Source: Candidatus Limnocylindrales bacterium (GTDB lineage Bacteria > Chloroflexota > Limnocylindria > Limnocylindrales > CSP1-4). From it: a stretch of DNA of 64,000 nucleotides. Position numbers and translations under genes: made by a program. The notes under the pieces are model-generated. The model was not told the DNA's origin, searched no databases, and was given only the letters and a program-made list of their open reading frames with translations. Numbering within the stretch: position 1 is the first letter of the stretch; each line of letters opens with the position of its first letter. Of this stretch, positions 31,810 through 63,551 are shown one piece after another. The stretch is taken from assembly GCA_038248915.1 (NCBI GenBank), contig JBBRXB010000003.1:49091-113090 (forward strand), in the 5' to 3' direction.

Positions 31810-33090
31810 ATGCACATCGTGGACGTTCGGACGGTCCTGCTGACCGGCCCCAGCACGAACGACCCATATCTCGGCCGGAGCCGCCGGAGCGCGGCCTTCG
31901 TCGAGATCTTGACCGACACGGAGTTGACCGGCCTCGGCGAGACCTACGCCGGCTACTTCATCCCCGAGGCGATCCCGGCGATCGTCGACTTCTACCGTCC
32001 GATCCTGCTCGGTCAGACGGTCGACGACGTGCCGACACTCGCCGCGCGCCTGTTCCACACCGGGCGCTACTGGGCGCGGACCGGCCTCGGTCTGGCGGTC
32101 ATCACCGCACTCGAGGCGGCCCTCTGGGACCTGCGGGGCCACGAGCTGGGCCGCCCCGTCCACGAGCTGCTCGGTGGCCGCCGGCACGACAGCCTGCTCG
32201 GCTACGCGACCGGCGGCGGCACCGTCTACCCGCCGGCACGCCTCGCCGACAAGATCGACTTCTATCTCGGGCTCGGCTTCCGGGCGTTCAAGATCGGGAC
32301 GGGTGCTTCGACTCCCGACGGCGAGGAGTGCGCCTTCACCGAACCCGAGGCCGCCGCCGACTTCGAAGCCGAGAAGTTCGCGTTCGTGCGCGACCACGTC
32401 GGCCCCGACGTGGCCGTCCTGCTCGATGGTCATCAGGACAACCTCGCGATCCCGGGCTGGGAGGTGCCGACCGCGCTGGCCGTCGTCAGGGCCGTGGAAC
32501 CGTTCGACCTGTTCCTGTTCGAGGAGCCACTGCCCTACACCAACCCGTGGGGCTACGGCGAGTTGCGCGGCGCGACGAGCGTGCGGATCGCCGGCGGCGA
32601 GACGCTGACCGGCGTCCCGGAATGGCGGGTCTTCGCCGAGGAGGACGCTTTCGACATCGCCCAGCCCGACGCGGCGTTCTGCGGCGGACTCGGTGAGTTC
32701 CTGCGGATCGCGGCGCTGTTCGAATCACGCGGCCGCAAGATCGCGACCCATGCCTGGGGTGCCGGCGGTGCGCTGATGCAGAACATCCATGCCGCCTTCG
32801 CCGCGCCCAACACGGTCATCTGCGAGATCCCGCCCGCATTCGGGCCGCTGCACTCGGAGATCGTGGGCGACTCGTTCGTGATGCGTGACGGCCAGGTCCT
32901 GCCGCCGGACTCGCCCGGCCTGGGCATCCGGCTCCCGCCGGAGCTGCGCGACCGCTACCCGTTCGTGCCCGGCAGCGGCGAGTTCAACCCGGTCCCCGGC
33001 AAGCCGCTCACGGACGTTGGCTATCCGGGACTGGAACCCCAAGCTCCGAGTGCTCCGCGCCAGATCCCCGGAGATCGCCCCGGAGCGTGA
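31810..33090 (+). CDS. Enolase-superfamily protein (mandelate racemase/muconate lactonizing enzyme family; acid-sugar dehydratase-like)
   Basis: N-terminal capping domain followed by a barrel domain with metal-ligand spacing (LLDGHQDN..., FEEP...). GGAGAGGAG RBS. Confidence 0.85.
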   Translation: MHIVDVRTVLLTGPSTNDPYLGRSRRSAAFVEILTDTELTGLGETYAGYFIPEAIPAIVDFYRPILLGQTVDDVPTLAARLFHTGRYWARTGLGLAVITALEAALWDLRGHELGRPVHELLGGRRHDSLLGYATGGGTVYPPARLADKIDFYLGLGFRAFKIGTGASTPDGEECAFTEPEAAADFEAEKFAFVRDHVGPDVAVLLDGHQDNLAIPGWEVPTALAVVRAVEPFDLFLFEEPLPYTNPWGYGELRGATSVRIAGGETLTGVPEWRVFAEEDAFDIAQPDAAFCGGLGEFLRIAALFESRGRKIATHAWGAGGALMQNIHAAFAAPNTVICEIPPAFGPLHSEIVGDSFVMRDGQVLPPDSPGLGIRLPPELRDRYPFVPGSGEFNPVPGKPLTDVGYPGLEPQAPSAPRQIPGDRPGA

Positions 33091-34381
33091 CGCCGTCACG
33101 CCCGACCGCCAGGGTCGGGATCTGGGGCCGGATGTACAGCGCCACCGCGGCCGCCAAGGCCAGTCCGACTCCGCACAGGGCCAGGGCATGCCGGGCGCCG
33201 ATCTGCTCGGCCACGATCCCGACGACGATCGCACCGATCGGCATCATCCCCCAATAGAGGGTGGCGAACAGGCTGACCATCCGGCCGCGCAGCCGGGGCG
33301 GGGAGATGGCCTGGGTGAGGGTCAGCGTGGCCGCGGCGAACGTCAGGAAGCTCGCGCCGACGATCGGCAGGACACCGATGGCGAGCGCGGCGCCCGGCAC
33401 GAGCCCGAAGGCCGTGAGCCCGATGGCCGCCCCGAACATCCCGCAGAACAGCGCCCGGCCATGGCCGATCCGCCGCTGGATGGTCTCGAGCGAGACGCCC
33501 GCGATGAGGCCGCCGATCCCGACCGTGACCATCAGGATGCCGAGGCCGGCCGCACCGATGCCGAGCTCCTCCGCCGCGACCGGCAGCATGTACACGTAGC
33601 TCAGACCGATCGCGCCGGGGGCGATGGCCAGGATGATCAGCACGCCGAGGGTCGGGTGGCTGGTGGCGTACCGGAACGCCTCCGTGAGCGGTCCGAGGAG
33701 GCTGGCGCTCGGACGGTCATCGGGTGCATGGGTGGTGGTCGTATGGACCCACAGGAGGACCACGACCGGGAACGCGAACAGGATCGCGGCGATGAAGAAC
33801 GCGAGGGACGTGGTCGTCGTCGCCAACAGGAAGCCACCGAGCAGGCCGCCGATGATCCGGGCGACGTTCATGTGCAGGAAGTTGAGGGCCGTCGCGCTCG
33901 ACACGGCCTTTGGCGGAACGAGGTCGTTGACGATGGCGACCGACGCCGGTGCACCGATCGTCTGGCCGATGCCGAACAGCAGCGCCAGGCCGAGGACCGC
34001 GAGATATGGCGGCGAACCGCCGAGGGCGACGATGCCCTGGATCACGCCGACCATGGACAGGGCCGCGAACGAGGCCATCAGCATCGCCCGCGCACCGAAC
34101 CGGTCGGTCAGCACGCCCGCATGTGGCGAGAGGAGCAGGACCGGCAGGCCGGTCATGGTGAACGCCAGCCCGACCGCGGCCGCGGAGCCGGTCACCTGGA
34201 GCACGTACCAGCCGAGGGCCGCGTTGTACAGGAAGCTGCCGCTGGTCGAGCCGAGCATGGCCGCGATGAACCAGCGGAACGGGGGGTACTCGAACGCGGT
34301 CCAGCCGACGCGATCGAGTCGCGAGTCGGCTCTCGTCACGACTTGGGCGGGCGGTCGGGCCACGCGGGCAGTGTAAGTCAC
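33008..34381 (-). CDS. MFS transporter
   Basis: 12 predicted TM helices and MFS loop motifs (GVLTDRFGAR). 83-bp convergent overlap with the enolase gene 3' end. Confidence 0.75.
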   Translation of the reverse strand: MTYTARVARPPAQVVTRADSRLDRVGWTAFEYPPFRWFIAAMLGSTSGSFLYNAALGWYVLQVTGSAAAVGLAFTMTGLPVLLLSPHAGVLTDRFGARAMLMASFAALSMVGVIQGIVALGGSPPYLAVLGLALLFGIGQTIGAPASVAIVNDLVPPKAVSSATALNFLHMNVARIIGGLLGGFLLATTTTSLAFFIAAILFAFPVVVLLWVHTTTTHAPDDRPSASLLGPLTEAFRYATSHPTLGVLIILAIAPGAIGLSYVYMLPVAAEELGIGAAGLGILMVTVGIGGLIAGVSLETIQRRIGHGRALFCGMFGAAIGLTAFGLVPGAALAIGVLPIVGASFLTFAAATLTLTQAISPPRLRGRMVSLFATLYWGMMPIGAIVVGIVAEQIGARHALALCGVGLALAAAVALYIRPQIPTLAVGRDGVTLRGDLRGSGAEHSELGVPVPDSQRP

Positions 34382-35604: not shown

Positions 35605-36024
35605 TCACTCGTCGTAGCGCCATTGAAAGCGTTCGGGGGTCACGACAAGCAGGACCCGGTCCGCCTTGATCCCCTCCCAGTGGGCCTGCGCGTCGGCCTC
35701 GACGGGTTCGTACTTGCGGATCAGGTCGAGCGTTCGCTTACGAACGTCGCCCTCGACGACCTCGGCGATCCCGAACACCTGCACGTAGTTGGACCGACGG
35801 CCCGGGCCGTCGATACACAGCGTGATCCGCGGGTCGCGCTTGGCGTTCTTGACCTTGACCGTCCAGTCGAGCGTGCTGACCCAGAACCGCTCGCCATCCC
35901 AGTAGAACCAGTTGGGCGTCAGCTGCGGCCGTCCATCGGCCATGATCGTGGCGACGATGGCGTGCGGCCGCTCGCGCAGGAACGTCGCCTGCGACTCGGT
36001 CAGGTCCGCCGCGGTGCTGGCCAT
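35605..36024 (-). CDS. PPOX-class F420-dependent enzyme family protein (second paralog)
   Basis: RPQLTPNWFYW...FQWRYDE. ATGA overlap with the E1 stop. Confidence 0.75.
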   Translation of the reverse strand: MASTAADLTESQATFLRERPHAIVATIMADGRPQLTPNWFYWDGERFWVSTLDWTVKVKNAKRDPRITLCIDGPGRRSNYVQVFGIAEVVEGDVRKRTLDLIRKYEPVEADAQAHWEGIKADRVLLVVTPERFQWRYDE

Positions 36025-38483: not shown

Positions 38484-38695
38484 CTGCCCGTCTGCCTCCT
38501 GTCGTCGTGTGGTTCGGATCCGGTTGCGTCCGGTTTATCGGGACGCGAGTCCCATTCTGCTGGTATGCTCACTGTGCCATGCGCAGCCCGACCGGGTCAA
38601 TCACCCGGACCACGACCGGCCCCGCGACACCGCCCACGCCCGTGACGCACGTGCCTCCCCTCCCCGCCGTCGCCGGCACCGCCCGGAGCGGCCCG

Positions 38696-39445
38696 ATGGC
38701 CCGCTGGGTCCGCGTCCTGGAGGCCTTCGCCGTGTCGGGTGAATGGGGCATCCGCGACCTGGCCCGCGCGACGGACATCCCGCGCAGCGCAGCCCATCGC
38801 ATCCTCCATGACATGGCCGCGCTCGGATTGTTGGCGCCGGCCGACGAGGCCGGCCGGTTCCGGGTCGGGGCGGATCTCGCCCGGATCGGGCTCCTCGTCG
38901 CCGAGCACCTCGACATCCGCCGCGTCGGCCGGCCGTTCCTCGAGCGCGCATCCGCGGCCATCGGTGAGACCGTCGTCATCGCCATCTACGACCCGGTCCG
39001 ACGCCAGTTCTCCGCGGTCGACGCGGTCGAGACCAGCCATCCGATCCGCTACCTGTGGGAATCGCTCCGCGATTGGAGCGACCTCCACCTCGGCTCGTCC
39101 GGCAAGGGCATCCTCGCGTTCCTGCCGCCGGACGAGCAGGCGGCCATCCTTGAGCGGCTGCCGGATCCGATCCCGGGCCGCACCGCCCTGACCAAGGAGC
39201 AGCTGCGTGCAGAGCTCGAGGCGGATCGAGGGCGAGGCTACGTCGTGAGCCACGGCGAGCGCTACGAGGGCGCGGTCGGTGTCTCGGCCCCGGTCCGCGA
39301 CGCCCGCGGCCGTGTCGTCGGCGACCTGATCGCGACCTGGCCGGACAACCGCACGGACGCGGTCAAGGAGGCGGCTGCAGGGATCGTGGTGATGGCCGCC
39401 GCGGACGATCTGTCGCGCCGGCTTGGCTGGAATGGCCATGAGTGA
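38696..39445 (+). CDS. IclR-family transcriptional regulator
   Basis: N-terminal wHTH (VRVLEAFAVSGEWGIRDLARATDIPRSAAHRIL) and C-terminal IclR effector domain. GGAGCGG RBS. Confidence 0.8.
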   Translation: MARWVRVLEAFAVSGEWGIRDLARATDIPRSAAHRILHDMAALGLLAPADEAGRFRVGADLARIGLLVAEHLDIRRVGRPFLERASAAIGETVVIAIYDPVRRQFSAVDAVETSHPIRYLWESLRDWSDLHLGSSGKGILAFLPPDEQAAILERLPDPIPGRTALTKEQLRAELEADRGRGYVVSHGERYEGAVGVSAPVRDARGRVVGDLIATWPDNRTDAVKEAAAGIVVMAAADDLSRRLGWNGHE

Positions 39446-40469
39446 GCCGATCCGGATCGGGATCGTGGGCGCCGGCCGGATCGTCGAAGCTGAGCACGTC
39501 CCACGCTTTCGTGCCATCGCCGGCGTCGAACTGGTCGGCGTGGCCAATCGGTCCGAAGCGTCGTCGCGCGCCGCCGCCGAGTGGCTGGGGCTCCCCCGCG
39601 CCTATTCGTCCTGGCAGACGCTCGTGGCCGATCCCGCGATCGACGCGGTCGTCGTGGGTGCGTGGCCGGTCTTCCACGCTCCGGTCACGATCGCCGCGCT
39701 CGAGGCGGGCAAGCACGTGCTGACCGAGGCCCGCATGGCGGCCACCGCCGACGATGCCCGGGCCATGGTGCGACGCGCCCGCGCCCACCCGGACCTCGTC
39801 GCGATGGTCGTCCCCGCCACGTTCTCCTCCTGGGCAGACGGCACGGTCGCCCGGCTGCTGCGCGACGGCACGATCGGCCACGTTCGCCACGTGCAGGTCG
39901 GCTGGGACAACGGCGGACCAGGCGACGCCGGCGATTTCTGGCGCTGGCAGCGAGCCACCAGCGGCGACAACATCATGGCCCTCGGCATCCTGGCTGAGGC
40001 GATGACCCGCTGGCTCGGCCAGCCGGAGGCTGTCACCGCCACGACCCGGCTGGGCGCGCCGCAACGACCCGGTCCGCACGGTCCGATCACGGTGGACGTT
40101 CCCGACCACGTCCTTGCCCTCGTCGACTTCCCGGACGACGTGACCGCCACGATCGAGATGTCGGCGCGAATCAACCATGTGCGTCCCGACCACGCGACCA
40201 TCCATGGCACCGACGGCACGCTCCATGTCGACCTCGGCGCCAAGCAGATCGACCTCGTCCGCGCGGGAACCCGCGAGCCCGTCGCCATCCGCGACGAGGA
40301 CCGTGCCGGCTGGACGGCCGAAGTCGACTTCGTCTCGGCGATCCGCGGCGGCCCGCCCGGCACCCTGACTGACTTCGTGACCGGGCTCGGCTACATGGCA
40401 TTCCTGGAAGCCGTCCACCGTTCCGCGGCCAGCGGCTGCCGCACCGTCATCGACGGAGACGCATCGTGA
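39438..40469 (+). CDS. Gfo/Idh/MocA family oxidoreductase
   Basis: IRIGIVGAGRI Rossmann motif. Start overlaps the IclR stop. Confidence 0.8.
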   Translation: MSEPIRIGIVGAGRIVEAEHVPRFRAIAGVELVGVANRSEASSRAAAEWLGLPRAYSSWQTLVADPAIDAVVVGAWPVFHAPVTIAALEAGKHVLTEARMAATADDARAMVRRARAHPDLVAMVVPATFSSWADGTVARLLRDGTIGHVRHVQVGWDNGGPGDAGDFWRWQRATSGDNIMALGILAEAMTRWLGQPEAVTATTRLGAPQRPGPHGPITVDVPDHVLALVDFPDDVTATIEMSARINHVRPDHATIHGTDGTLHVDLGAKQIDLVRAGTREPVAIRDEDRAGWTAEVDFVSAIRGGPPGTLTDFVTGLGYMAFLEAVHRSAASGCRTVIDGDAS

Positions 40470-41314
40470 AGCTGTTGGAGTTCGCGCGCTCGACGATCCT
40501 GTTGCGGATCGACCTGGACGTGCTGACCGCGCGAACGCTCAGTCACGAACCACCGTTCGCGCTGAACAACGGCCGGGTTCCGATCGATAGCATCTGCCGG
40601 ATCACTGAATGCGACGGCGGACGGGTCCACACCTATGTCCTCGGTGGTGACTGCAAGACGGAGCGGGTCGGGGCAGCGGCAGAGCTGTTCCTGGAGCCCA
40701 ATGCGGACTTCATCCCGATCTTCTCGGATGACGCGTTCATGCACATCAAGACGTTCGCGCGGGCGGGCACACAGGCCCAGGCCTACCCGCCGGGCTCGGG
40801 CGAGCAGAGCGACCGGTTGATCTCCGCGCTGACCGAATCCTTCGTCGGCGTCCATTTCGATCTCGTCGAGCGCGAGGGCGAGCGACTGGCGGACGGCCGG
40901 GCCATCGTCGACGCCGTCCTCGCCAACGACGTCATCGTCGGCGTCCACCGCCTGCGCACCGATCGCTACGACGTCGAGATCGAATACCCGGCCAAGACGA
41001 TCAACGCCAACGAGCGAGACATCGTCTACCAGACCGACACCGGCCCGATCCTGTGGCCCGACCTCGAGCGCGACCCGGCCGACCTGCTGTCCGGGCTCGA
41101 GCTCGCCTTCACGGCCGCCAACGCGCCGGACTGGGCCCAGATCATCGTGCGCCGCCGGACGTCGATCGCCGACGGCGTCGAGGTCTACCACTACGCCGAC
41201 TCGATTCGGGTGGAGGCCATCGCCAACGAGTTCTACCGGATCCCCGACGACGCGCCGATCACCCGGCGCCGGGTCGACCTGATGGCGACCACGAATGGAG
41301 AGGGCCGATCATGA
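40466..41314 (+). CDS. Hypothetical protein (282 aa) translationally coupled between the Gfo oxidoreductase and an enolase-family gene
   Basis: GTGA and ATGA overlaps on both sides. Normal amino-acid composition. No motif recognised. Confidence 0.5.
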   Translation: MKLLEFARSTILLRIDLDVLTARTLSHEPPFALNNGRVPIDSICRITECDGGRVHTYVLGGDCKTERVGAAAELFLEPNADFIPIFSDDAFMHIKTFARAGTQAQAYPPGSGEQSDRLISALTESFVGVHFDLVEREGERLADGRAIVDAVLANDVIVGVHRLRTDRYDVEIEYPAKTINANERDIVYQTDTGPILWPDLERDPADLLSGLELAFTAANAPDWAQIIVRRRTSIADGVEVYHYADSIRVEAIANEFYRIPDDAPITRRRVDLMATTNGEGRS

Positions 41315-42438
41315 AGGTCACCGCGATCGAATCCCGGGTCATCGGCTACGACATCGCCGAGGCGTGGGGCGAAGGCCTCCTGCCCGAAGGCATCAACACG
41401 AGCTGGTACGAGTACTCGTTCGACACGTTCGAAACGGACGACGGGCTCGTCGGCTACACGATGCAGAACGCCAACCTGCGCGATGGCGCAGCGATGATCA
41501 ACGTGCTCCACGACCTGTATGCCCCGCAGGTCATCGGCGAGGATCCGCTCCAGAGCGAGGCGCTGTGGCAAAAGCTGCGCCGCCTCAACCGCCACGCCTA
41601 CAACCTGTCCGACGGGATGGCCGGCGCCATCGACGTGGCGGTCTGGGACATCCGCGGCAAGGCGGCCGGCATGCCGATCGCGACGATGCTCGGCCTCGCC
41701 CGCGAGAAGATCCCGGCCTACGCCACCGCCCGCAACATCGAGCCGACGCCCGACGACGTCTACAAGGAGGCGGCCGAGCGCAAGGCACAGGGTTACCATG
41801 GCTTCAAGGTCCAGTTCTGGGATGGCCTCGACCGCGACATCCCGCGCTTCCGGGCCGCGCGTGAGGCGGTCGGCGACGACTACCCGCTGATGCAGGACGC
41901 CGCCGGGATGTACAGCTACACGCAGGCGTTGGCCGCGGGCAAGGTCCTGGGCGAGCTCGGCTACACCTGGTTCGAGGAACCCATCCCGGACCGCAACCTG
42001 TTCCAGCTCCAGCGTCTGACCGCCCAGCTCGACGTGCCGATCCTGGCCGGCGAGACCTCGCGGGTCCACGAGCTGGCCGAGATGATCCGGATGGGCGCCT
42101 GCGACATCGCCCGGGGCGACGTCCACATGAAGGAGGGCATCACCGGCCTGCACAAGGCGGCCGGCCTGGCGGACCTGCTCGGCTTCGAGCTCGAGGTCCA
42201 CGGCATCAACCAGCCGCTGCTCGACACCGCCAATCTGCATGTGGCGCTGTCGATGTCGAACGGACGCTGGTCCGAGACCTTCCACCCGATCTACTACCGC
42301 GGCCTCAAGGGTGGACCGCTCGACATCGATGCCGAGGGCTACAAGCACCTGCCGGCCGGGCCCGGCCTCGGCGTCGAGCTCGACTGGGACTGGATCGACG
42401 ACAACACGCGTTCGACGCGACGGACACCCGCCGCCTGA
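41311..42438 (+). CDS. Enolase-superfamily protein (mandelate racemase-like)
   Basis: MKVTAIESRVIGYD... capping domain and barrel domain. GGAGAGGG RBS. Confidence 0.85.
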   Translation: MKVTAIESRVIGYDIAEAWGEGLLPEGINTSWYEYSFDTFETDDGLVGYTMQNANLRDGAAMINVLHDLYAPQVIGEDPLQSEALWQKLRRLNRHAYNLSDGMAGAIDVAVWDIRGKAAGMPIATMLGLAREKIPAYATARNIEPTPDDVYKEAAERKAQGYHGFKVQFWDGLDRDIPRFRAAREAVGDDYPLMQDAAGMYSYTQALAAGKVLGELGYTWFEEPIPDRNLFQLQRLTAQLDVPILAGETSRVHELAEMIRMGACDIARGDVHMKEGITGLHKAAGLADLLGFELEVHGINQPLLDTANLHVALSMSNGRWSETFHPIYYRGLKGGPLDIDAEGYKHLPAGPGLGVELDWDWIDDNTRSTRRTPAA

Positions 42439-42494: not shown

Positions 42495-44105
42495 ATGGAC
42501 GATGCGTCGATCGGACCGAGCTCGCCGGATCGTCGATGGGCGCTGGGCGGCGAGGCGTTTGCGGTCCTGATCCTCGTGCCGGCCCTGTGGTTCAGCGCGT
42601 GGGCCTTCGGCGCGGCCGGCGGCAACACCGGCTACGGGGTCTGGGCCGCCGTGGGGCTGGTCGCTTGCGCCGTCATCTGCCTGGGCAGCCTGGCCCGGAC
42701 GGACCCCGTCGGTTATGCCTCGATCGCCGGTCCGGTGCTGGTTTCCGGGGCCATCGTCGTCGCGCTCGAGTGGGCCCGCATGAACGCGGCCGCGCTCGTG
42801 ACCCTCGCCTTCGCCTGGCTCGTCGCCTGGATCTTCTTCGGCGACCGCATCTGGCCGACCTGGTCACGGCTCGTCCTTCGCCGGGGAGCGACGCCCGAGG
42901 CGACCTTCGCCGATGCATATCAGCGCCTACGGACGCATTGGGAGCATGACCGCGCGACCGATCGTGGGGCTCTGTGGGAGGAGGTCCAGGCGCTCGAGGT
43001 GTGGCGCACACCACGCACCGCACCCATCATCAACGGGCTGCTCGCATCGCTCGATATCGGGGTCCGCGAGAGCGACCAGGTCCGCGCCCCACGAGTCCGG
43101 GATCGTCTGGACGACGAGTGGGCTCGCTTCCGCAGGGACGGCACGACGTCCTCGAAGGGCGCCGCCATCACCGAACGTCCCACACGAGGCACGCTCCTCG
43201 AGTACCTCATCCCCGAGCTCGAGGCCCTCGTCGCGGAGGTGAAGCCGGATCGACAGCGCAGGATCGCCGTCGAATCCGCCAGGTATGCCTACCGGCTGGC
43301 GGGCGCCACCGACCTGACCATCGAGGCCGCCCTCGACGACGCCGCTCGGGGCCGTCCCGATGTCGCGGAACGTGACCGGATCGGACGCGAGCTAGCGGCC
43401 CTGCCGCGACCGTCCGGCGATATGGCCGGACCCGCTGCCGAGGCCGCGCTGATCGCCGCGTGGCGCCGGGCCGTATCGCTGTCGGCCGTGCTGGCGGCCC
43501 TGGTCGAGCCGATGACGCCAGTCGCCGCGGCAGATGCCGTGTACGAGGGCAGCCGGAGTCTGAACGACGCGGAGCTCGCCGAGCTCACGAGGCTGGTCAC
43601 GGGACTCGCCGGTCCGGAGGCGGCCGAGCGGGCCGTGATCATCGAGCCAGACCCGACGCTGGCACCGACCAGCGGGCGGCGCGCGGATGACGGCCGGCCG
43701 GCCGGCCCGGCGCGGACCGATGTGTCGGTGGCAGGTCTGGCCGCGGTCGGGCTCGCCGCCGGGATCGCCGGATCGGCCATCCGCGAGCCGCTGTGGGCGG
43801 TCTACGGTCAGGTCCCGCAGGCGGCGGCGCTGGACAACCTGGTCGGGGTGGTCATCGTGGCGCTGGTCGCGGTCGGCCTGCTGCTGATCGGTGGATACCG
43901 GCTCTCACCGATGGGCATCCTCGGCTTGTACATCGGCTCGCTCATCGCCAGCGTCCTCGTTGCGATGCTGTCCGATCCGACCGAGGCGTTCACGTTCGTG
44001 CTGCTGTACGGCGTGGCGTACGCCCTGGTGCTCGTCACGGGCGCCGTGCTCCTTCGCCGCGGTTCGACACGGAACGCGTCGGGCGGAGCGCCGACCGAGG
44101 CCTAG
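42495..44105 (+). CDS. Hypothetical polytopic membrane protein (4 N-terminal + 4 C-terminal TM helices flanking a ~330-aa soluble domain)
   Basis: Hydrophobic segments are seen directly. Ala-rich rather than Arg-rich, so unlikely to be a shadow ORF. Confidence 0.5.
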   Translation: MDDASIGPSSPDRRWALGGEAFAVLILVPALWFSAWAFGAAGGNTGYGVWAAVGLVACAVICLGSLARTDPVGYASIAGPVLVSGAIVVALEWARMNAAALVTLAFAWLVAWIFFGDRIWPTWSRLVLRRGATPEATFADAYQRLRTHWEHDRATDRGALWEEVQALEVWRTPRTAPIINGLLASLDIGVRESDQVRAPRVRDRLDDEWARFRRDGTTSSKGAAITERPTRGTLLEYLIPELEALVAEVKPDRQRRIAVESARYAYRLAGATDLTIEAALDDAARGRPDVAERDRIGRELAALPRPSGDMAGPAAEAALIAAWRRAVSLSAVLAALVEPMTPVAAADAVYEGSRSLNDAELAELTRLVTGLAGPEAAERAVIIEPDPTLAPTSGRRADDGRPAGPARTDVSVAGLAAVGLAAGIAGSAIREPLWAVYGQVPQAAALDNLVGVVIVALVAVGLLLIGGYRLSPMGILGLYIGSLIASVLVAMLSDPTEAFTFVLLYGVAYALVLVTGAVLLRRGSTRNASGGAPTEA

Positions 44106-49423: not shown

Positions 49424-49447
49424 GGGTCTGGTCGATGCGGGCGTCAA
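49418..49447 (-). promoter_or_regulatory. Sigma70-like promoter on the minus strand (-35 TTGACG, 18-bp spacer, -10 TAGATT) for the FMN-dehydrogenase/enolase/GNAT operon
   Basis: The -10 hexamer is the outer half of the palindromic operator. Confidence 0.5.
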
Positions 49448-49479
49448 GCCGCCCGACGGGGACCACCCAGGAGGTGCCT

Positions 49480-52618: not shown

Positions 52619-53352
52619 GCGTCGCCCTCGGCCGCGGGCGCGACTGATGGTCCGGCCGACAGATCGATGCCCTGGACGAGCGCGTCGACCTTGCCGCCCA
52701 TCCGCTCGGGCTCGCCGGGCAGGTCGTCCCGTGGCGGCAGCCGGTGGAACGGCACGGCGAAGACGGCGTCGAACCCCTCGGCGTGGCGCGACGGCCAGCC
52801 CAGGTCGAGGGCATACCGAAGTCCCAGGTTGACCTCCCACTGGACGAGGTCCACCGGCCATTCGTCCTCGAGCCCGCGGGTCATGATGGCCGCCAGCTCC
52901 ACCTTGCGCTGGGCGATCTCGACGGGCAGGTCGATCCACATGTTCGGGTGGAACTCCAGGGTCGTCGACGCGATCGGATAGCGCAGGATCCGGCTCTTGT
53001 AGGCGAACGTGCCGGCCAGGTCGGCCGCGTCGAGGAGCGCACGTCCGACGGTCGTGTGGTCGCCCGTCCAGTCGCCCGTGGCCGGCGGCCCGAACACGTA
53101 GGCGGGCCTGCGCTCGCGCAGGATCGCTGCCAGCGAGTCCTTGACCCGCTGGGCGTGGTCGGAGATGCGGTGGTAGGGCGCCTCCAGGAATTCGATGGTG
53201 GCGCCGAATGCCGCCGCGACATCGCGCGCCGCCGTCTGCTGGATGGACGACACCGCGACGATGTGGATGTCGTCATCGGCGTGGGTGATGAGCGTGCCGC
53301 CGACGCCGTAGATGAAGTCATCGGTGTGGGGCGTGACGACCAAGATCTCCAC
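52615..53352 (-). CDS. PIG-L/LmbE family N-acetyl-sugar deacetylase
   Basis: VTPHTDDFIYGVGG (HPDDE-type motif). GTG start with GGAGG RBS; an alternative ATG is at 53394. Confidence 0.7.
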   Translation of the reverse strand: MEILVVTPHTDDFIYGVGGTLITHADDDIHIVAVSSIQQTAARDVAAAFGATIEFLEAPYHRISDHAQRVKDSLAAILRERRPAYVFGPPATGDWTGDHTTVGRALLDAADLAGTFAYKSRILRYPIASTTLEFHPNMWIDLPVEIAQRKVELAAIMTRGLEDEWPVDLVQWEVNLGLRYALDLGWPSRHAEGFDAVFAVPFHRLPPRDDLPGEPERMGGKVDALVQGIDLSAGPSVAPAAEGDA

Positions 53353-53413: not shown

Positions 53414-54349
53414 TCAGGCGGTGAGGACCGAGTCCTCCAGCCACGAGCGGTACTCCGCCTCGAGGAACCGCTTGCAGACCTGGTAGTCGTCCTCGCTGAA
53501 GCCCGTATACGGCGACAGCAGCCGGAGCGGGAATTCCGGGAGCATGCCGAGCTTGACCAACATCTTGTCGTAGGCGCCGTCCATGTGCGGCCCGGGCGTC
53601 GGCTGTTCCCACAGGTCCGTGCCCAGGCGCTGAAACGCGTGCTGGAGCCGCATCAGCTCGCCGGCATCGCCGGTCCGGCCGGCTTCGAACAGGGCGAACG
53701 TCTGCCGTGGCGACAGCTCCGCATACGACGCGAGCAGGGACGCCTCGCCGAACATGGCGCCGTGCGGGAAGTTGCCCTCGCCCATGAAGTGCTGGAGCTC
53801 GCCAGCGTGGCGGATCAGCTCCTCCGCTCCGGCCATCCCGCCGCCGGTCGTCTTGGTCGCGACGAGGTTGGGGACCTTCGGGATGACCTTGGCGTAATCG
53901 CGCCCGCCGAGGACCCGCTTGGTCCGGGGCAGGTTGTAGTGGAGGAACTGCGAGTCCGGGAAGCTGCCGCACACGTCCGAGAAGAAGCGCAGGACCTCGT
54001 CGTCGTTGAGCGGGCCCCACGACGGCAGCGAGATCTGGAACGTGCGAAAGCCGACGTCATGCGCGTATGAAAGGCGCTCGACGATCTGGACGGTCGACAG
54101 CCCGATGACGCCGACCATCGCGTTGACCGGCCGGCCGTCGATCTCCTCGTGGAAGACGTCGACCACCTGGCGGAACCGTCGTGTGTCGACGGCGTAGCCC
54201 TCCCCGCCCGTCCCGAACACGTAGCAGTGCTTGAAGCCGGCGGCGATGACGCGCCGGACCTCCTCGCGGAGGAGCTCCTCGATGAGCTCGTCGTGGTCGT
54301 CCCAGGGCGACGGACAGGCGACGAGGATGCCCTGCGGATAGCGGGCCAT
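53414..54349 (-). CDS. Dihydrodipicolinate synthase/N-acetylneuraminate lyase (DapA) family protein, likely 2-keto-3-deoxy-acid lyase/dehydratase
   Basis: FGTGGEG motif and DapA-family TIM barrel. Confidence 0.75.
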   Translation of the reverse strand: MARYPQGILVACPSPWDDHDELIEELLREEVRRVIAAGFKHCYVFGTGGEGYAVDTRRFRQVVDVFHEEIDGRPVNAMVGVIGLSTVQIVERLSYAHDVGFRTFQISLPSWGPLNDDEVLRFFSDVCGSFPDSQFLHYNLPRTKRVLGGRDYAKVIPKVPNLVATKTTGGGMAGAEELIRHAGELQHFMGEGNFPHGAMFGEASLLASYAELSPRQTFALFEAGRTGDAGELMRLQHAFQRLGTDLWEQPTPGPHMDGAYDKMLVKLGMLPEFPLRLLSPYTGFSEDDYQVCKRFLEAEYRSWLEDSVLTA

Positions 54350-55467: not shown

Positions 55468-56952
55468 ATGATGGTGATGGAACGGACCGACACGGTGGCG
55501 CATTTCATCGGTGGCGAGGAGGTGCCCTCGGCCTCCGGCCGGACCTTCGCGACGATCGATCCGTCGACCGGGCGGGAGATCGCCCAGGTCGCGTTCGGCG
55601 ACACGGAGGACATCGACCGGGCGGTCGCGGCCGGGCGCGCGGCGTTCGAATCGGGCGCCTGGTCGAAGGCCGCGCCGGGCCACCGCGCGGCGGTCATGCG
55701 CAAGCTCGCCGACCTCATCCACCAGGACGCCGACCGGATCGGCGCGATCGAGTCGCGCGACACGGGCAAGCCCCTGGGCCAGGCCATCGCCGAGGTCCAC
55801 CTGGGCGCCGATTTCCTGACCTACTTCGCCGGGCATGCCGAGCTCCCGAATGGGACCACCTACCCCGCCGACGCCGGCTACTTCGTCTACTCGGTCCGCG
55901 AGCCGTATGGCGTCGTCGGTGCGATCAGCCCATGGAACTATCCGTTCCTGCTCGCCTGCTGGAAGACCGCGCCGGCGCTCGCAGTCGGCAACTCGGTCGT
56001 GCTCAAGATGGCCGAGCAGACGCCGCTGTCCACCGCCGAGCTGGGCCGGCTGACGCTCGAAGCAGGGATGCCGGCTGGGGTGTTCAACGTCGTCCACGGT
56101 GACGGCCCGACGACCGGGGCCGCCCTGGTCGCCCACCCGCACGTGCCCAAGCTCACGTTCACCGGCTCCACCGTGACGGGCCAGGCGATCCTGCGCTCGG
56201 CGGCCGACCACATCAAGAGCGTGCATCTCGAGCTCGGTGGCAAGACGCCCAGCATCGTCTTCGGCGATGCGGACATCGATCAGGCGATCTCCGGCTCTCT
56301 GTTCACGGCCTTTTACAACACCGGCCAGATCTGCACGAGCGGGTCGCGACTGCTCGTCCAGAAGAACCGGGCGGACGAGATCATCGACGCGTTCGTGGAG
56401 CGCGCCCGCGGCATCAAGGTCGGCGATCCTGGCGAGGCGACCTCGCAGCTCGGGCCGCTCATCAGCGAGGAGCAGTACCGGCGCGTCACCGGCTACATCG
56501 AGGAGGGCCAGCGCGGCGGAGCGCGACTCGCGCTCGGTGGCGGGCGGCCGTCGGTCCCGATCGCCGATGACGGCTATTACGTCGAGCCGACGATCTTCGT
56601 GGACGTGACCCCGGACATGCGGATCGCACAGGAGGAGATCTTCGGGCCGGTCCTGTCGGTCCTCACCTTCGAGGACGAGGACGACGCCATCCGGATCGCC
56701 AACGACGTCATGTATGGACTGGCCGCGACGGTCTGGACCACCGACCTTGGCCGCGCTTTCCGGGTGGCCGACAAGATCGACGCCGGGATCATCTGGACCA
56801 ACTGCCCGCATTACCTGCCGGTCAACGTGCCGTACGAGGGCCACAAGATGTCCGGCCAGGGCGAGGACCTGGGCGTCGAGGCGCTCCAGACGTTCACCCA
56901 CCTCAAGACCCATTGCATCAACTTCAACGGCGGCAGGATGGCATGGGCGTGA
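55468..56952 (+). CDS. NAD(P)-dependent aldehyde dehydrogenase (possible 2-oxoglutarate-semialdehyde dehydrogenase-type)
   Basis: ALDH motifs (GAISPWNYP, ELGGK, catalytic Cys in GQICTSGSR, EEIFGPV). GGAGG RBS. Confidence 0.9.
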   Translation: MMVMERTDTVAHFIGGEEVPSASGRTFATIDPSTGREIAQVAFGDTEDIDRAVAAGRAAFESGAWSKAAPGHRAAVMRKLADLIHQDADRIGAIESRDTGKPLGQAIAEVHLGADFLTYFAGHAELPNGTTYPADAGYFVYSVREPYGVVGAISPWNYPFLLACWKTAPALAVGNSVVLKMAEQTPLSTAELGRLTLEAGMPAGVFNVVHGDGPTTGAALVAHPHVPKLTFTGSTVTGQAILRSAADHIKSVHLELGGKTPSIVFGDADIDQAISGSLFTAFYNTGQICTSGSRLLVQKNRADEIIDAFVERARGIKVGDPGEATSQLGPLISEEQYRRVTGYIEEGQRGGARLALGGGRPSVPIADDGYYVEPTIFVDVTPDMRIAQEEIFGPVLSVLTFEDEDDAIRIANDVMYGLAATVWTTDLGRAFRVADKIDAGIIWTNCPHYLPVNVPYEGHKMSGQGEDLGVEALQTFTHLKTHCINFNGGRMAWA

Positions 56953-58150: not shown

Positions 58151-58843
58151 TCAGGCCGCGAGGTCGGTCGACGGCCCCGGTAGCGCTGCGTTCAAGAGTG
58201 CGGCGAACAACGCCCCGGTCGGCCCGTGGTTTCCGAGCATCGACGCACGCGCAGCCTGTCCATACAGCAGGGCAGCCGGTCGCGGCTTGATCGCCACGAT
58301 CGCGGGCAGCCCGTATCGAAGCGCCACGAAGTTGGCCCAACACCGAGCTATCCGGCCATTGCCGTTGGCGAACGGGTGGATGCGAACCCACTCGCCGTGG
58401 GCGAAGGCCGCGAACCGCACAACAGCGGCCAGAGCAGCTGGCGACGACGGCTTGGCGCCCACTGCGATGTGCACCTCGATTCGGCCACAAAGCGTGTGCA
58501 TAGCCGCTTCGAAGGTCGCGAGTGCGGCCGGGACATCGGTGTGACGGACGCCGGGTAAGCCGCCGACGACCACGTCATAGGCGATGAGTTCTGGAAACAA
58601 CGGATCAGTGTCGCGGATCTCGCCGGTGTAGTACGGCACCGGAAGCGGCACCCCGCGATAGATGGATCGATGCCAGTCGGCGGCAAGTGCCAAGGTGGGC
58701 GCCACACGCGCTGCCGCTTGGCCCTTGACCGTCTGGGCGACGGCTGCGGTGTTCTGCGCGATGAGTGGGTAGGCGGACGGAGGATCGGCGTCCCAGGCGA
58801 TCGGCATCAGCGGCCGAACGCGGCGCGATCTCGAACGGGTCAT
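58151..58843 (-). CDS. Fic/Doc family protein (toxin-like)
   Basis: Core Fic motif HPFANGNGR. Start uncertain (58843 or ATG 58807). Confidence 0.75.
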   Translation of the reverse strand: MTRSRSRRVRPLMPIAWDADPPSAYPLIAQNTAAVAQTVKGQAAARVAPTLALAADWHRSIYRGVPLPVPYYTGEIRDTDPLFPELIAYDVVVGGLPGVRHTDVPAALATFEAAMHTLCGRIEVHIAVGAKPSSPAALAAVVRFAAFAHGEWVRIHPFANGNGRIARCWANFVALRYGLPAIVAIKPRPAALLYGQAARASMLGNHGPTGALFAALLNAALPGPSTDLAA

Positions 58844-59117
58844 CCTCCCGGACCACCATTCGGGCGGAGATCGGATCGGTCTGCCCCTCGGCCTCGGCCC
58901 ATGCCGTGAGCGACGCCTCGATGTCGCTCGGCCGCAGCTCCTGGAGTCGTCGCAGGGTGGCTTCGAGTTCTGCCTCGAGACCGAGGCTGATCGCCGCCAG
59001 CTCCCGCTCGATCATCTCCTCGGCCAAACGGTTCATCGACGTGCCCAACTGCTCAGCGACGAGACGAAGCCGCTCCCGAGTGTCGGGATTGGCGAATCGC
59101 AGCGGAAAGGTGCTCAT
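58836..59117 (-). CDS. Putative ribbon-helix-helix antitoxin/regulator partner of Fic; 3' end undefined
   Basis: N-terminal beta-strand/helix pattern MSTFPLRFANPDTRERLRLVAEQLGTSMNRLAEEMIERELAA. The frame has no stop until 58605 and runs 240 nt into fic in another frame, so the true end is uncertain. Confidence 0.4.
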
Positions 59118-60465: not shown

Positions 60466-60501
60466 GGTTGTGTGACGCGAGTGCCGACCCCTTCGTTTAC
60501 G

Positions 60502-61230: not shown

Positions 61231-62388
61231 TCAGCCAGAGTTCCGGAGCGGGTGCTCGGCGACGACCGACTCGACGATGTTGGCGCCGAGCCCGGGCCGT
61301 GAGGGCACGATCAGCTCGCCGTCGACGATCTCGATCTTCTGGTCGATGAGGTCCCACTTCCAGGGGATGTCGTCCATGTCGATCTCGAAGATCTCGAAGT
61401 TGGGCATCGCGGCGTAGAGATGCGCGTTGGCGAGGGTGGACAGCGGGCTCATGTAGTTGTGCGGCGAGACCATCGTGTCGTAGTGGGCCGCCAGCTCGCA
61501 GATCCGGCGCGATTCCGACAGGCCGTTGTTGAGGAGCTCCACCATGACCACGTCCGTGACGTGGCGCTCGAGGAACGGGCGGAACTGCTCGCGCCGGATG
61601 AGCGCCTCGCCATGGCACAGGCGCGTCCGGGTCCCCCGCCGGGCGGTCAGCAGCGCGTCCGGATCGAACCCTTCGGCCTCCAGCCAGTACAGGTCGAATG
61701 GCTCAAGCGCCCGCCCGAGCTCGATGATCCCGCCGTGGCGGTACTCCTGGCCGACGTCGAACAGGATCCCCATGTCCGGTCCGACCCGCTCTCGCAGGGC
61801 GCCGATGAACGCCACCGCCGCATCGATCCGGTAGCGGTCGATAGCGCCGTACAGCGTGGGTGGCAGGCCGGTCGTCAGCCCCGGCACGAGCAGATTGGTC
61901 TTGAGCGCCTTGAAGCCTGCCGCTTCGACGTCGTCGACGAGCGCGATCCAGCTGTCGAGGGTGCGCGCCGGCTCGACCCCGAGCGCCTCCGGGTCGATCG
62001 CCCGGTAGGAGGCGAAATGCGACCAGTACAGCGGCAGCCGGTCGCGGTACAGGCCGCCCAGCAGCTCGTAGACGGGCACGCCCAGCCACTTGCCCTTGAT
62101 GTCGTAGAGCGCCAGCTCGATCGCCGCGAGGACCTTCATCCGTTCCGGCACGCCGGCCTTGCCCACGTCCCAGAACTTCCGGCCGATCAGGTCGATCCGG
62201 CGCGGATCCTCGCCGACCAACTCCTTGCCGAGGACGCGGATGGCCTCGGCCAGCACGGACCCGGTGTGCCAGTCGTAGCCCTCGCCCCAGCCGACGATGC
62301 CCTCGTCGGTCGTGACCTTGACGAACAGCCAGTCCCGACCGCCGATGCCGCTGTTGCAGGTCATCGGCTCGATGGCGGTGATCTTCAT
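61231..62388 (-). CDS. Enolase-superfamily acid-sugar dehydratase (D-mannonate/D-galactonate dehydratase-like subgroup)
   Basis: MKITAIEP...VKVTTDEGIVGWGEGY N-terminus. ATGA overlap with the upstream paralog. Confidence 0.85.
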   Translation of the reverse strand: MKITAIEPMTCNSGIGGRDWLFVKVTTDEGIVGWGEGYDWHTGSVLAEAIRVLGKELVGEDPRRIDLIGRKFWDVGKAGVPERMKVLAAIELALYDIKGKWLGVPVYELLGGLYRDRLPLYWSHFASYRAIDPEALGVEPARTLDSWIALVDDVEAAGFKALKTNLLVPGLTTGLPPTLYGAIDRYRIDAAVAFIGALRERVGPDMGILFDVGQEYRHGGIIELGRALEPFDLYWLEAEGFDPDALLTARRGTRTRLCHGEALIRREQFRPFLERHVTDVVMVELLNNGLSESRRICELAAHYDTMVSPHNYMSPLSTLANAHLYAAMPNFEIFEIDMDDIPWKWDLIDQKIEIVDGELIVPSRPGLGANIVESVVAEHPLRNSG

Positions 62389-63551
62389 GGCAACCGGTCC
62401 GCGGCGAGCGGATGCGCTCGCACGACGTCTTCGACGATGTCGGCGCCCCAGCCGGGCCGGTCCGACACGATCAATTGCCCGTTCTCGATCTCGAGCGGGT
62501 GGGTCAGCAGGTCGCCCTTCCAGGGCACGTCGTCGATGTCGATCTCGAGGATCTCCACGTTCGAGACCGCCGCGCACAGCTGGGCGTTGATCAACGTCCC
62601 GAGCGGGCTCATCCAGTTGTGGGGCGAGATCATCGTGTCGTACAGCTCGGCCATCTCGGCGATCCTGCGCGACTCGGACAGGCCATTGGACAGCGTTTCG
62701 ATCATCACGACATCCGTGACGTGACGCTGGAAGAACGGCCGGAACTGCTCGCGCCGGATGAGGCTTTCGCCGTGGCACAGGCGGGTGGTCGTCTGCTCGC
62801 GCGCCGCCAGCAGCGCGTCCGGGTCGAGGCTCTCGGCCTCCAGCCAGTACAGGTCGAATGGCTCGAGCGCCCGGGCGAGCTGGACGATGCCGCCCATCCG
62901 GTAGTCGAACTGGACGTCGACGGCGATACCGATGCCCGGTCCGACCACGTCGCGGAGCGTGCCGATCCAGGCCACCGCGGCGTCGATCGTCGCGTGGTCG
63001 ATCGCGCCGTCGAGGTAGCGCGGCAGACGGGCGCGGCCGTCCGGGCCGCCCTCCGCGATGAGGTTAGTCTTGAGGACCTTGTACCCGGCCGCGACCACGT
63101 CCCGCGCCCCGGCCGCCCACTCGGCGTACGTGTGGGTCGGCGGCTGGCCGACGACCTCCGGCCAGACCGCGCGGTACGTCGCGAAGTGCGACCAGTACAG
63201 CGGGATCCGATCGCGGAACAGGCCGCCGAGCAGCTCGTAGACCGGCACGCTCAGCCACTTCGCCTTGATGTCCCACAGCGCGAGGTCCATCGCGGCCAGG
63301 ACCTTCTGGCGTTCCGGGACGCCCGGCCGGCCGCTGTACCAGATCCGCTCGTTCATCAGCTCGATCCGACGCGGGTCTTCGCCGATCAGCCGCCGGCCCA
63401 TGACTTCGAGCGCGGTCTTGAGCGACGCCGAGGTGTGCCAGTCGTAGGTCTCCGCCCAGCCGACGATGCCCTCGTCCGTGGTGACCTTCAGGAAACCGAA
63501 TTCGCGCGATCCGCCGTCGCAGACGAATGGCTCGATCGCCGTGATCTTCAC
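62385..63551 (-). CDS. Enolase-superfamily acid-sugar dehydratase, tandem paralog
   Basis: ~65% identical by eye to 61231..62388 (VKITAIEPFVCDGG...LKVTTDEGIVGWAETY). GTG start chosen so that the operator lies upstream. Confidence 0.85.
   Translation of the reverse strand: MKITAIEPFVCDGGSREFGFLKVTTDEGIVGWAETYDWHTSASLKTALEVMGRRLIGEDPRRIELMNERIWYSGRPGVPERQKVLAAMDLALWDIKAKWLSVPVYELLGGLFRDRIPLYWSHFATYRAVWPEVVGQPPTHTYAEWAAGARDVVAAGYKVLKTNLIAEGGPDGRARLPRYLDGAIDHATIDAAVAWIGTLRDVVGPGIGIAVDVQFDYRMGGIVQLARALEPFDLYWLEAESLDPDALLAAREQTTTRLCHGESLIRREQFRPFFQRHVTDVVMIETLSNGLSESRRIAEMAELYDTMISPHNWMSPLGTLINAQLCAAVSNVEILEIDIDDVPWKGDLLTHPLEIENGQLIVSDRPGWGADIVEDVVRAHPLAADRLP

Follow-up and report, generated by a model that had tools for sequence, protein, structure and literature searches.

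A conserved island of divergent enolase-superfamily genes in a soil Chloroflexota genome, with a probable role in parallel sugar-acid catabolism

We describe a 64-kb stretch of DNA from Candidatus Limnocylindrales bacterium (GenBank assembly GCA_038248915.1, contig JBBRXB010000003.1, positions 49,091 to 113,090 of the forward strand; 64,000 nucleotides, referred to throughout as the window and numbered from its first letter) that carries six genes of the enolase superfamily, E1 to E6, set among genes for Gfo/Idh/MocA oxidoreductases, aldolases and transporters. The interpretation that we favor, and hold to be reasonably probable, is that the region is a conserved multi-operon island in the chromosome of an uncultured soil bacterium, serving the parallel oxidative catabolism of sugars or sugar acids, built around anciently diverged enolases of the single-base dehydratase type. 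It would be made up of small, separately regulated operons, each pairing a different mandelate racemase (MR)-like enolase with partner enzymes, namely oxidoreductases (mostly Gfo/Idh/MocA, plus SDR and FMN-dependent hydroxy-acid dehydrogenase), transporters, and proteins for the conversion of 2-keto-3-deoxy acids (HpcH aldolases, a DHDPS-family enzyme, a FAH hydrolase and an aldehyde dehydrogenase).

Because the window is ∼70% G+C, genes were called by third-position GC together with codon-position scores and then annotated with Pfam, giving 59 genes; GC is uniform along the sequence (0.67-0.72). In a species-level genome collection the proteins most similar to E6, at 73-94% identity, belong to soil metagenome-assembled genomes (MAGs) labeled Chloroflexia, Thermomicrobiales, Chloroflexota or Candidatus Limnocylindrales, and the window therefore comes from a Chloroflexota bacterium and not from an actinomycete. 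A preliminary description of this DNA had listed six enolase-superfamily genes, and each of them does match Pfam MR_MLE_N and MR_MLE_C above the gathering scores, amounting to 6 of the 59 genes (10%), while a tblastn re-scan of the window finds exactly these six loci and no extra copies or fragments. E1 (31810-33090, + strand) is MR-subgroup-like (MR_MLE_C, 1.2e-47), with 3sjn as its best match in the PDB (1e-35), and E2 (41311-42438, +) is closest to 1rvk/4hcd from A. tumefaciens (3e-46). E3 (47125-48294, -) lies in the AtGCI/DauB neighborhood, its best match being AtGCI (4ggb/4hpn, 1.6e-48), and its paralog E4 (50175-51269, +) likewise matches AtGCI (4ggb, 6.8e-47, with a residue-level alignment); DauB (5olc) is also among the best solved relatives of both. 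E5 (61231-62388, -) and E6 (62385-63599, -), the downstream and upstream members of a tandem pair, have 2oo6 as their best match (1e-65 and 6e-79, respectively). The 389-residue product of E3 is on record as an exact match (P0121). NCBIfam models were used as an equivalog test, in which the model score is compared with the curated cut-off; none of E1-E6 reaches such a cut-off, the best scores for E1 (∼125-129 bits) falling far short. The 3' end of E1 overlaps a convergent MFS gene by 83 nt (33008-33090), and because a similar overlap of ∼70 nt is present in a related contig (L083) the C-terminal extension of E1 seems real.

Active sites were compared in a multiple sequence alignment of E1-E6 with the sequences from the PDB-search alignments and with E. 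coli DgoD, RspA and RhmD (MG1655 record), using as anchors the roles described for Lys166, Asp194, Glu220, Glu246 and His296 of AtGCI (PMC5698469). The AtGCI positions K164, K166, D194, E220, E246, D269 and H296 are aligned, and D183, H185, E209, E235, D258 and H285 of DgoD are reproduced. These DgoD positions match the published GalD numbering. The Lys on strand β2, the three metal ligands (Asp/Glu/Glu on strands 3-5) and the His on β7 are retained in all six window proteins. E1 has K161, D206-x-H208, E238, E264, D287 and H314, a GalD-type layout; the corresponding residues are K166-x-Q168, D196, E222, E248, D270 and H297 in E2, K164-x-R166 and H297 with E270 on β6 in E3, K153-x-R155, D183, E209, E235, D258 and H285 in E4, K163-x-N165, D211, E237, E261, E284 and H310 in E5, and K177-x-N179, D228, E254, E278, E301 and H327 in E6. 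The β6 partner of the β7 His is thus Asp in E1, E2 and E4 and Glu, a conservative variant, in E3, E5 and E6. The possibility had been raised that catalytic ligands might be missing, leaving non-enzymatic paralogs; with metal ligands and acid/base residues present in every case, E1-E6 do not look like dead paralogs.

The second Lys of the KxK motif is found in none of the six, its place being taken by G, Q, R, R, N and N in E1 to E6. It is missing as well from the characterized dehydratases DgoD (KxN) and RhmD (KxP), where the His dyad is established by mechanistic work as the only base. The substitutions are not peculiar to the window: KxQ and the other E2 residues given above are invariant in 114/114 E2 homologs, and KxR is present in 116/117 members of the E3 family, in which β6 is variable (Glu in 84, Asp in 33). 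Because this single-base layout is common to GalD and RhamD, E1-E6 look like dehydratases and not racemases; the residue pattern fits β-elimination, and a two-base racemase mechanism is unlikely for any of them. The contrary proposal is that the enolases are racemases or epimerases that invert α stereocenters and so make unusable stereoisomers oxidizable ('chiral complexity'), as Saw et al. suggested for the paralogs of SAR202 groups I and II (PMC6946804); E3, for instance, would feed the adjacent FMN-dependent L-2-hydroxyacid dehydrogenase in the way that mandelate racemase feeds S-mandelate dehydrogenase. An FMN_dh gene does lie directly upstream of E3, and in relatives a second pair of FMN_dh-like and enolase genes is found just past the window end. 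However, 1,1-proton transfer of the MR type requires both the second Lys of KxK, replaced here throughout and in fixed form in the E2 and E3 families, and the β7 His, the MLE-type alternative (a Lys on β6) is missing too, Asp or Glu occupying that position, and a later study of SAR202 cultures prefers dehydratase roles (PMC10444878). We consider racemization improbable.

Several subgroups were tried and rejected in the same alignment. Mandelate racemase proper does not apply, as no Lys is present at the Lys166 equivalent in any of E1-E6, nor does the muconate-lactonizing subgroup (OSBS/NSAR, dipeptide epimerases), since strand 6 carries Asp or Glu, not Lys, in 6/6 proteins; with the NCBIfam models for OSBS, epimerases and DgcA, whose cut-offs are 130-500 bits, the scores are only 26-52. 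The ManD subgroup was considered for E5/E6, but RspA has R147, D212-x-H214 and T287 where these proteins have Lys, no D-x-H and a strand-6 Glu, and the NCBIfam ManD models give 120-126 bits where the cut-off is 550. E1 matches D183/H185/D258/H285 of DgoD through D206-x-H208, D287 and H314, with a score of 125.5 bits on the GalD model (cut-off 311); judged from these residues and scores its mechanism appears to be GalD-like, yet E1 would not be an ortholog of GalD.

The similarity of E3 and E4 to AtGCI suggests a different role for these two proteins, as cycloisomerases of D-galactarolactone (or of another lactone or anhydro-sugar acid) in an Agrobacterium-like oxidative uronate pathway together with the DHDPS-like protein and the aldehyde dehydrogenase. 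AtGCI and DauB are their best solved relatives, the automatic JGI name of many E3 homologs is 'D-galactarolactone cycloisomerase', and genes of the DHDPS and Aldedh families are located 2-4 kb away from E4. The proposed base of AtGCI, Lys166 (PMC5698469), is nevertheless Arg in E3, in E4 and in the same 116 of 117 family members, and while His296 is kept, His197 is changed to Ala/Gly and Trp298 to Ser/Cys and the Asp87 loop is missing from both proteins. Both proteins have low identity to AtGCI and only 39% to each other, and the DHDPS protein scores only ∼26 bits on KdgD models. We give the cycloisomerase assignment little credence, and because of the Lys166-to-Arg change and the missing pocket residues the JGI label of the E3 family (P0122-P0240) is probably wrong.

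The preliminary description spoke of a massive local expansion, a phrase that is only partly right: E5/E6 is a tandem duplication, but for the remainder identities of 22-28% and synteny speak against amplification of paralogs in place. Such values are found in 13 of the 15 enolase pairs, the others being E3/E4 (39%) and E5/E6 (64.6%), and correspond to divergence between families within the superfamily; the best solved relatives differ from E1 to E2 to E3+E4 to E5+E6. Homologs of E3 labeled Acidimicrobiia, another phylum, are ∼55% identical to it and hence closer than E4. Nor are the six genes near-identical copies of a characterized enzyme, as might have been feared, given the low identities and the equivalog scores noted above. 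Gene order is kept in related Chloroflexota MAGs with protein identities of 60-95%. On the 819-kb contig L083 the order is E1, MFS, β-eliminating lyase, PNPOx, transketolase-like, IclR, Gfo, hypothetical protein and E2, continuing with HpcH, GNAT, E3, FMN_dh and GntR, and a second group of loci (L001-L017) keeps Gfo8, E6, E5, AT5, Aldedh, 2-Hacid_dh, DHDPS, PIG-L, Gfo7 and E4. Because gene order is kept in relatives, the island is ancestral to a clade whose orthologs have diverged to 60-95%, and synteny combined with deep divergence thus argues for an old, conserved co-localization of distinct families and not for a recent burst.

A recent origin of the six enolases and the eight Gfo genes through amplification in place, starting from one or two ancestors, would be suggested by the adjacency of E5 and E6, by the position of E3 and E4 only 1.9 kb apart and by the mutual identity (35-60%) of six Gfo proteins (G1, G2, G4, G6, G7 and G8). 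It is difficult to reconcile with the identities of the other 13 enolase pairs, with Acidimicrobiia-labeled homologs that are closer to E3 than E4 is, with an E5/E6 duplication older than the divergence of the MAGs, with the synteny of the whole gene order and with the lack of repeats, tRNAs and mobile-element genes outside a single insert at 58.1-61.2 kb. Such amplification is largely refuted, and we regard it as highly improbable. A mobile island was likewise tried and rejected, since the window has no tRNA genes, no Rfam matches, uniform GC and no integrase or transposase among its Pfam matches.

The clustering itself is far beyond chance for an ordinary genome, the probability of at least six enolases in 32 kb being ∼1e-11 to 1e-9 per 32-kb interval for 8-20 genes per 4.6-5 Mb; it is marginal if the genome is as rich as those of SAR202 group I (80 genes per 3.08 Mb), the corresponding values then being 2e-4 per interval and ∼0.02 genome-wide. 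Past the right end of the window, upstream of the Gfo8 ortholog, relatives (L001-L004, L007, L010, L011 and L017) carry a BNR protein, an open reading frame (ORF) like hyp8480, an FMN_dh-like gene and another enolase. This extra enolase is ∼30% identical to E2, and in L007 and L010 a further enolase-Gfo pair separates the gene for the aldehyde dehydrogenase from that for the 2-hydroxyacid dehydrogenase, so that, with additional enolase pairs both beyond and within the corresponding region of relatives, the enolase-rich cluster is larger than the window. The 58.1-61.2 kb segment has lower third-position GC and contains a Fic-domain ORF (58151-59011, -) and two ORFs without Pfam matches whose N-termini, by eye, are signal-peptide- or lipoprotein-like. 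Either a luciferase-like gene or some different sequence takes its place in relatives, and this replacement and the lower third-position GC make the segment look locally inserted, between E5 and the gene for the aminotransferase.

The tandem pair is as had been described, E6 and E5 sharing an ATGA at 62385-62388 on the minus strand, and all catalytic residues are kept in both proteins. Its occurrence is limited to the Chloroflexota loci L001-L017; elsewhere the gene is single-copy and ∼44% identical. Orthologs of E5 are 75-96% identical in 13 related loci, and some dozen MAG loci of relatives carry the two paralogs at 62-66% identity to each other, with orthologs only 73-96% identical to the window proteins. 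Because the pair is retained with the same paralog identity in about a dozen loci, the duplication must predate the divergence of the MAGs, and E5/E6 is the sole lineage-specific tandem duplication here, and an old one. When 14 sequences of each are compared, 37 columns are fixed within each ortholog group and differ between the groups, including those at +2 to +4 relative to the first metal ligand, at +1 relative to the third and at +2 relative to the His, where AtGCI has Trp298, and others in the N-terminal capping-loop region, a distribution that points to two maintained specificities or to a heteromer. The single-copy homologs of E6 (L018-L080, from Alphaproteobacteria, Rokubacteria and others) very often lie ∼0.8 kb upstream of a gene for a xanthine-dehydrogenase-family molybdopterin subunit; the window also has a molybdopterin subunit gene, at 9121-11451, far from E5/E6.

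The enolase genes do sit in different operon contexts, as had been noted. E1 is flanked by a divergent SDR dehydrogenase gene (30958-31716, -; adh_short, 1.7e-56), whose product may serve as a 2-keto-3-deoxy-acid dehydrogenase partner, and by the convergent MFS transporter gene (33008-34363, -; MFS_3/MFS_1), a pairing that is kept in L083. E2 is the last gene of an IclR-Gfo-hypothetical-enolase operon that proves to be real, with overlaps at all three junctions: an IclR regulator (38642-39445, +; HTH_IclR and IclR_C) overlaps Gfo5 (39432-40469, +; GFO_IDH_MocA, 2.8e-24; a divergent member at ≤33% identity to the other Gfo proteins) by 14 nt, Gfo5 shares a GTGA (40466-40469) with the gene that we call hyp40466 (40466-41314, +), and the latter shares an ATGA (41311-41314) with E2. 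The E3 unit begins with an FMN-dependent 2-hydroxyacid dehydrogenase/oxidase (48300-49334, -; FMN_dh, 3.4e-94; NCBIfam L-lactate dehydrogenase/oxidase and MftD matches under cut-off), followed by E3 and a GNAT acetyltransferase (46322-47128, -) whose TTG start overlaps the E3 stop. Downstream on the same strand are an HpcH/HpaI-family 2-keto-3-deoxy-acid aldolase (45411-46214, -; HpcH_HpaI, 1.6e-26; 27% identical to E. coli YfaU, with the NCBIfam HpaI, GarL and rhamnonate aldolase models all under cut-off) and then Gfo6 (44102-45118, -).

E4 stands behind a GntR/FCD regulator gene (49435-50178, +; GntR and FCD domains), to which it is indeed translationally coupled through a GTGA stop/start overlap at 50175-50178. 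It faces Gfo7 (51551-52618, -; orthologs in L004, L008 and L015; best NCBIfam model IolG-like, 159 bits against a cut-off of 355), a PIG-L deacetylase (52615-53352), a DHDPS-family enzyme, KdgD- or aldolase-like (53414-54349, -; DHDPS, 1.8e-17; weak NCBIfam matches; adjoining the genes for 2-Hacid_dh and PIG-L in relatives), a 2-hydroxyacid dehydrogenase and an aldehyde dehydrogenase (55468-56952, +; Aldedh, 6e-169), a set that could be Weimberg-like. The aldehyde dehydrogenase, 86-95% identical in most relatives that carry the gene, matches α-ketoglutaric semialdehyde and 2,5-dioxovalerate dehydrogenase models under cut-off, and none of the other partner enzymes tested attains an equivalog cut-off. 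The E6-E5 pair is divergent from Gfo8 (63701-64000, +; GFO_IDH_MocA, 6.7e-21), of which the N-terminal 100 residues fall within the window and whose position is kept in relatives.

Nine Gfo/Idh/MocA genes had been counted; both Pfam and a tblastn search with all eight against the six-frame window give eight, starting at 3993, 15091, 17087, 24043, 39432, 44102, 51551 and 63701 and defined by a PF01408 Rossmann domain with C-terminal α/β domains (N-terminal only for Gfo8). Six of them (Gfo1, 2, 4, 6, 7 and 8) form the group of 35-60% mutual identity mentioned above, with the other two as outliers, and no NCBIfam equivalog cut-off is reached by the Gfo proteins tested. A ninth member was sought by inspection among the large Pfam-less ORFs and two candidates were rejected, 1336-2772 being lipoprotein solute-binding-like and 42495-44105 multi-pass-membrane-like. 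The first of these (+ strand, 478 residues) has a Tat/lipoprotein-like N-terminus (SRREVLKGG...LAAC), lies between ABC permease and ATPase genes, and is presumably the ABC solute-binding protein, although Pfam searches relaxed to E≤10 find no family for it. The second (+, 536 residues) has hydrophobic N- and C-terminal segments, an Ala-rich middle and good coding third-position GC; along with Gfo6 it is missing at the corresponding position in L083.

In the pathway that we favor a Gfo-type dehydrogenase would oxidize the sugar to a lactone or acid, whose carboxylate the enolase would bind on Mg2+ through the Asp/Glu/Glu triad observed on strands 3-5. The strand-7 His, paired with the strand-6 Asp or Glu, would then take the α-proton and the β-hydroxyl would be eliminated to give a 2-keto-3-deoxy acid, which aldolase cleavage, or further dehydration and oxidation, would convert to central metabolites. 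Parallel non-phosphorylative routes of this kind, Dahms-/Weimberg-like or rhamnonate-/fuconate-like, would handle different sugars or sugar acids. Sugar acids, already put forward as the likely substrates, are a reasonable class in view of the aldolase, DHDPS-like, aldehyde dehydrogenase, FAH and SDR neighbors.

A number of points weigh against this assignment. Operon membership is read from spacing and overlaps only, and 64 kb alone does not tell local from genome-wide enrichment. For E3 and E4 the nearest characterized enzymes, AtGCI and DauB, are cycloisomerases and not dehydratases; the closest solved relatives 3sjn, 1rvk, 2oo6 and 2qq6 carry only generic or doubtful names, which point to no substrate. 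No clear lactonase is found in the enolase operons, there being only an NHL/SGL-like protein at 25091, and the Gfo paralogs score best, well under cut-off, against inositol and other dehydrogenase models. Finally, the neighbors include proteins of amino or N-acyl type (PIG-L, GNAT, AstE/AspA-like, two Amidohydro_3 and an aminotransferase, together with D-Ser-dehydratase-like and β-eliminating lyase proteins).

These last genes could mean that the main substrates of the island are hydroxy-amino acids or sugar acids carrying amino or N-acyl groups (sialic-acid-like, cell-wall-derived) and that the enolases act on such compounds in place of plain aldonates or aldarates. The genes in question are PIG-L at 52615, the class-V aminotransferase at 56913, GNAT at 46322 with its start overlapping E3, AstE/AspA-like at 11532, BNR_2 at 12587, Amidohydro_3 at 20339 and 27177, the D-Ser-dehydratase-like gene at 19231 and the β-eliminating lyase at 34422; the hyp40466 family is moreover fused to BNR_2 in two proteins (P0434 and P0471), and its distant members adjoin PALP and AstE, RidA and NanM-like genes. 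Against this, none of the six enolases falls in a family known to act on amino acids, the NCBIfam scores for DgcA, dipeptide epimerase, OSBS/NSAR and hydroxyproline dehydratase being far below those of the acid-sugar dehydratase models, and HpcH, DHDPS, aldehyde dehydrogenase and FAH make up the classical 2-keto-3-deoxy sugar-acid set. As a general account of the island we think the amino/N-acyl proposal unlikely, albeit one to be taken seriously; for some operons it is compatible with sugar-acid catabolism, the two not being exclusive.

The most novel element of the region is hyp40466, which encodes a conserved all-β protein of 282 residues coupled to Gfo5 and E2. Neither Pfam nor NCBIfam has a model for it; its 321 homologs are all named 'hypothetical', one record (P0001) being identical to it, and there are 662 representatives at 50% identity. 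The AF2 (AlphaFold2) model is all-β and confident (pLDDT 80, pTM 0.82) and has no Foldseek match in the PDB at E≤1e-3. The Gfo5-hyp40466-E2 triad is present in 19/19 close loci that extend far enough to show it, and Gfo5 is upstream of hyp40466 in 18 loci of close homologs. In the two fusions mentioned above the hyp40466 family and the BNR_2 propellers occur in opposite orders, and the propellers are homologous to the BNR_2 sialidase-like protein of the window (12587-13687, +; 27% identity, E 1e-12, for the P0434 part), whose gene adjoins that of the AstE/AspA-like deacylase (11532-12494, +). More distant homologs have mixed neighbors (DUF3604, NanM/kelch, GntR-PBP, PALP, AstE, RidA, TPP enzyme and MFS) that form no single theme, though the contexts are those of small-molecule catabolism. 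In one such locus (L150) the homolog adjoins AstE-like and PALP genes. There is a hint here that the BNR_2, AstE/AspA-like and hyp40466 families are functionally linked. One may speculate that hyp40466 is a new enzyme or an obligatory sugar-acid partner that performs, for example, a lactone or anhydro-sugar step leading to E2, and separately that E6/E5 form a hetero-oligomer or supply two specificities to one pathway; we put this forward as a tentative idea and rather expect it to be wrong.

Elsewhere in the window Gfo1 (3993-5045, +) lies inside an ABC sugar-type transporter cluster, and a second sugar-acid-type operon (13684-18184, -) is composed of Gfo3, the FAH hydrolase, Gfo2, an HpcH aldolase and a small ORF, the best NCBIfam match of the FAH protein being 2,4-didehydro-3-deoxy-L-rhamnonate hydrolase (152 bits, cut-off 500). 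A run on the plus strand at 22078-29509 contains four luciferase-like monooxygenases (22078, 23063, 26014 and 28586), 26-54% identical to one another, along with Gfo4 (24043), the NHL/SGL-like propeller (25091) and an amidohydrolase (27177), all assigned by Pfam. Two small PNPOx-like flavoproteins are found at 8113-8523 (+) and 35605-36024 (-); these and the luciferase-like proteins may be oxidoreductases of sugars or lactones that depend on F420 or FMN. The luciferase-like genes belong to COG2141, a family expanded in SAR202 groups II and III. An ORF at 29527-30087 (+) starts like a pyridoxal phosphate-dependent protein (group II decarboxylase-like, 'GGTESN') and then becomes Ala/Arg/Ser-rich; it has no Pfam match, there is no coding signal in the next 200 nt, and judged by eye it is probably a remnant of a truncated or frameshifted gene.

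E3 and E4 share with AtGCI and DauB the metal ligands, the first Lys, the β6 Asp (E4) or Glu (E3) and the β7 His, and differ from AtGCI in the Arg fixed at Lys166 in the E3 family and in not keeping His197, Trp298 and the Asp87 loop. Among solved structures E2 is closest to the A. tumefaciens 'isomerase/lactonizing enzyme' (1rvk/4hcd); 1rvk has KxH and a β6 Gly where E2 has KxQ and Asp. The structure closest to E5/E6, a Burkholderia xenovorans 'putative L-alanine-DL-glutamate epimerase' (2oo6, with 3go2/3sn0/3sn1/3sn4), has K-T-N, the WxE-x-x second ligand and PHN in common with the pair but a β6 Asp in place of Glu. In E. coli, DgoD and RhmD resemble the window proteins in having the β2 Lys with no second Lys, three carboxylates and the β6-β7 dyad, with D-x-H in both DgoD and E1, and the operon logic of yfaXWVU (IclR, dehydratase, MFS, HpcH aldolase) is similar to that of the E3 unit. 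The differences are the 23-28% identity of RhmD to the window enolases, the β6 Glu of E3, E5 and E6, and scores of 108-160 bits on GalD (cut-off 311) and 50-109 on RhamD (cut-off 393) models, so that they are not orthologs. GudD and GudX of E. coli are adjacent enolase-superfamily paralogs of one operon with 63% identity, much as E6 and E5 are with 64.6%; GudX is reported to be a low-activity partner, and these proteins belong to the glucarate dehydratase subgroup, unlike the pair described here.

The closest parallel to the island as a whole is provided by marine Chloroflexota of the SAR202 clade. Group I genomes have 4-75 enolase paralogs (PMC6946804; PMC10444878), group II genomes have paralogs of both enolase and luciferase-like FMNO (COG2141) (PMC6946804), and cultivated group I strains have 80 highly divergent COG4948 genes (PMC10444878), COG4948 making up ∼1-3.5% of coding sequences genome-wide in expansions of this type. 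All within the MR-like subfamily, the paralogs branch deeply, and their numbers correlate with those of HpcH (COG3836), DHDPS (COG0329) and dehydrogenase paralogs (PMC6946804; PMC10444878). While the earlier paper proposed racemase roles (PMC6946804), the culture study proposed dehydratases in parallel non-phosphorylative pathways, with fucose, rhamnose and their acid forms stimulating growth (PMC10444878); on this question the residues of our six soil proteins favor the dehydratase view over the racemase one. It has been proposed for SAR202 that an ancient diversification of enolases and flavin monooxygenases gave marine Chloroflexota access to rare or recalcitrant carbohydrates, and here the same gene families occur in soil Chloroflexota as a compact syntenic island of small operons. 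Each orphan enolase consequently has defined partner genes, making functional assignment through context and library screening far more tractable than for scattered paralogs. What the analysis yields is a residue-level argument for dehydratases, a probable and widespread annotation error in the E3 family and a Pfam-less family tied to one enolase family; the understanding of the enolase superfamily is unchanged.

The two systems share the phylum, the many divergent MR-like paralogs that fall mostly outside characterized clusters, the co-occurrence of HpcH (COG3836), DHDPS-family (COG0329), SDR and MFS genes (HpcH is present twice in the window and Gfo eight times) and, for group II, COG2141, of which the window has the four luciferase-like genes. 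They differ in that the window lineage is a high-GC soil one (∼70% versus 51.8%) and not Dehalococcoidia/SAR202, that the main dehydrogenase partner here is Gfo/Idh/MocA and not SDR or aldo-keto reductase, and that the SAR202 reports give genome-wide counts whereas the window, read over 64 kb, is a physically clustered syntenic island. The island is thus not a new kind of thing but the land-based counterpart of the marine SAR202 paralog expansions.

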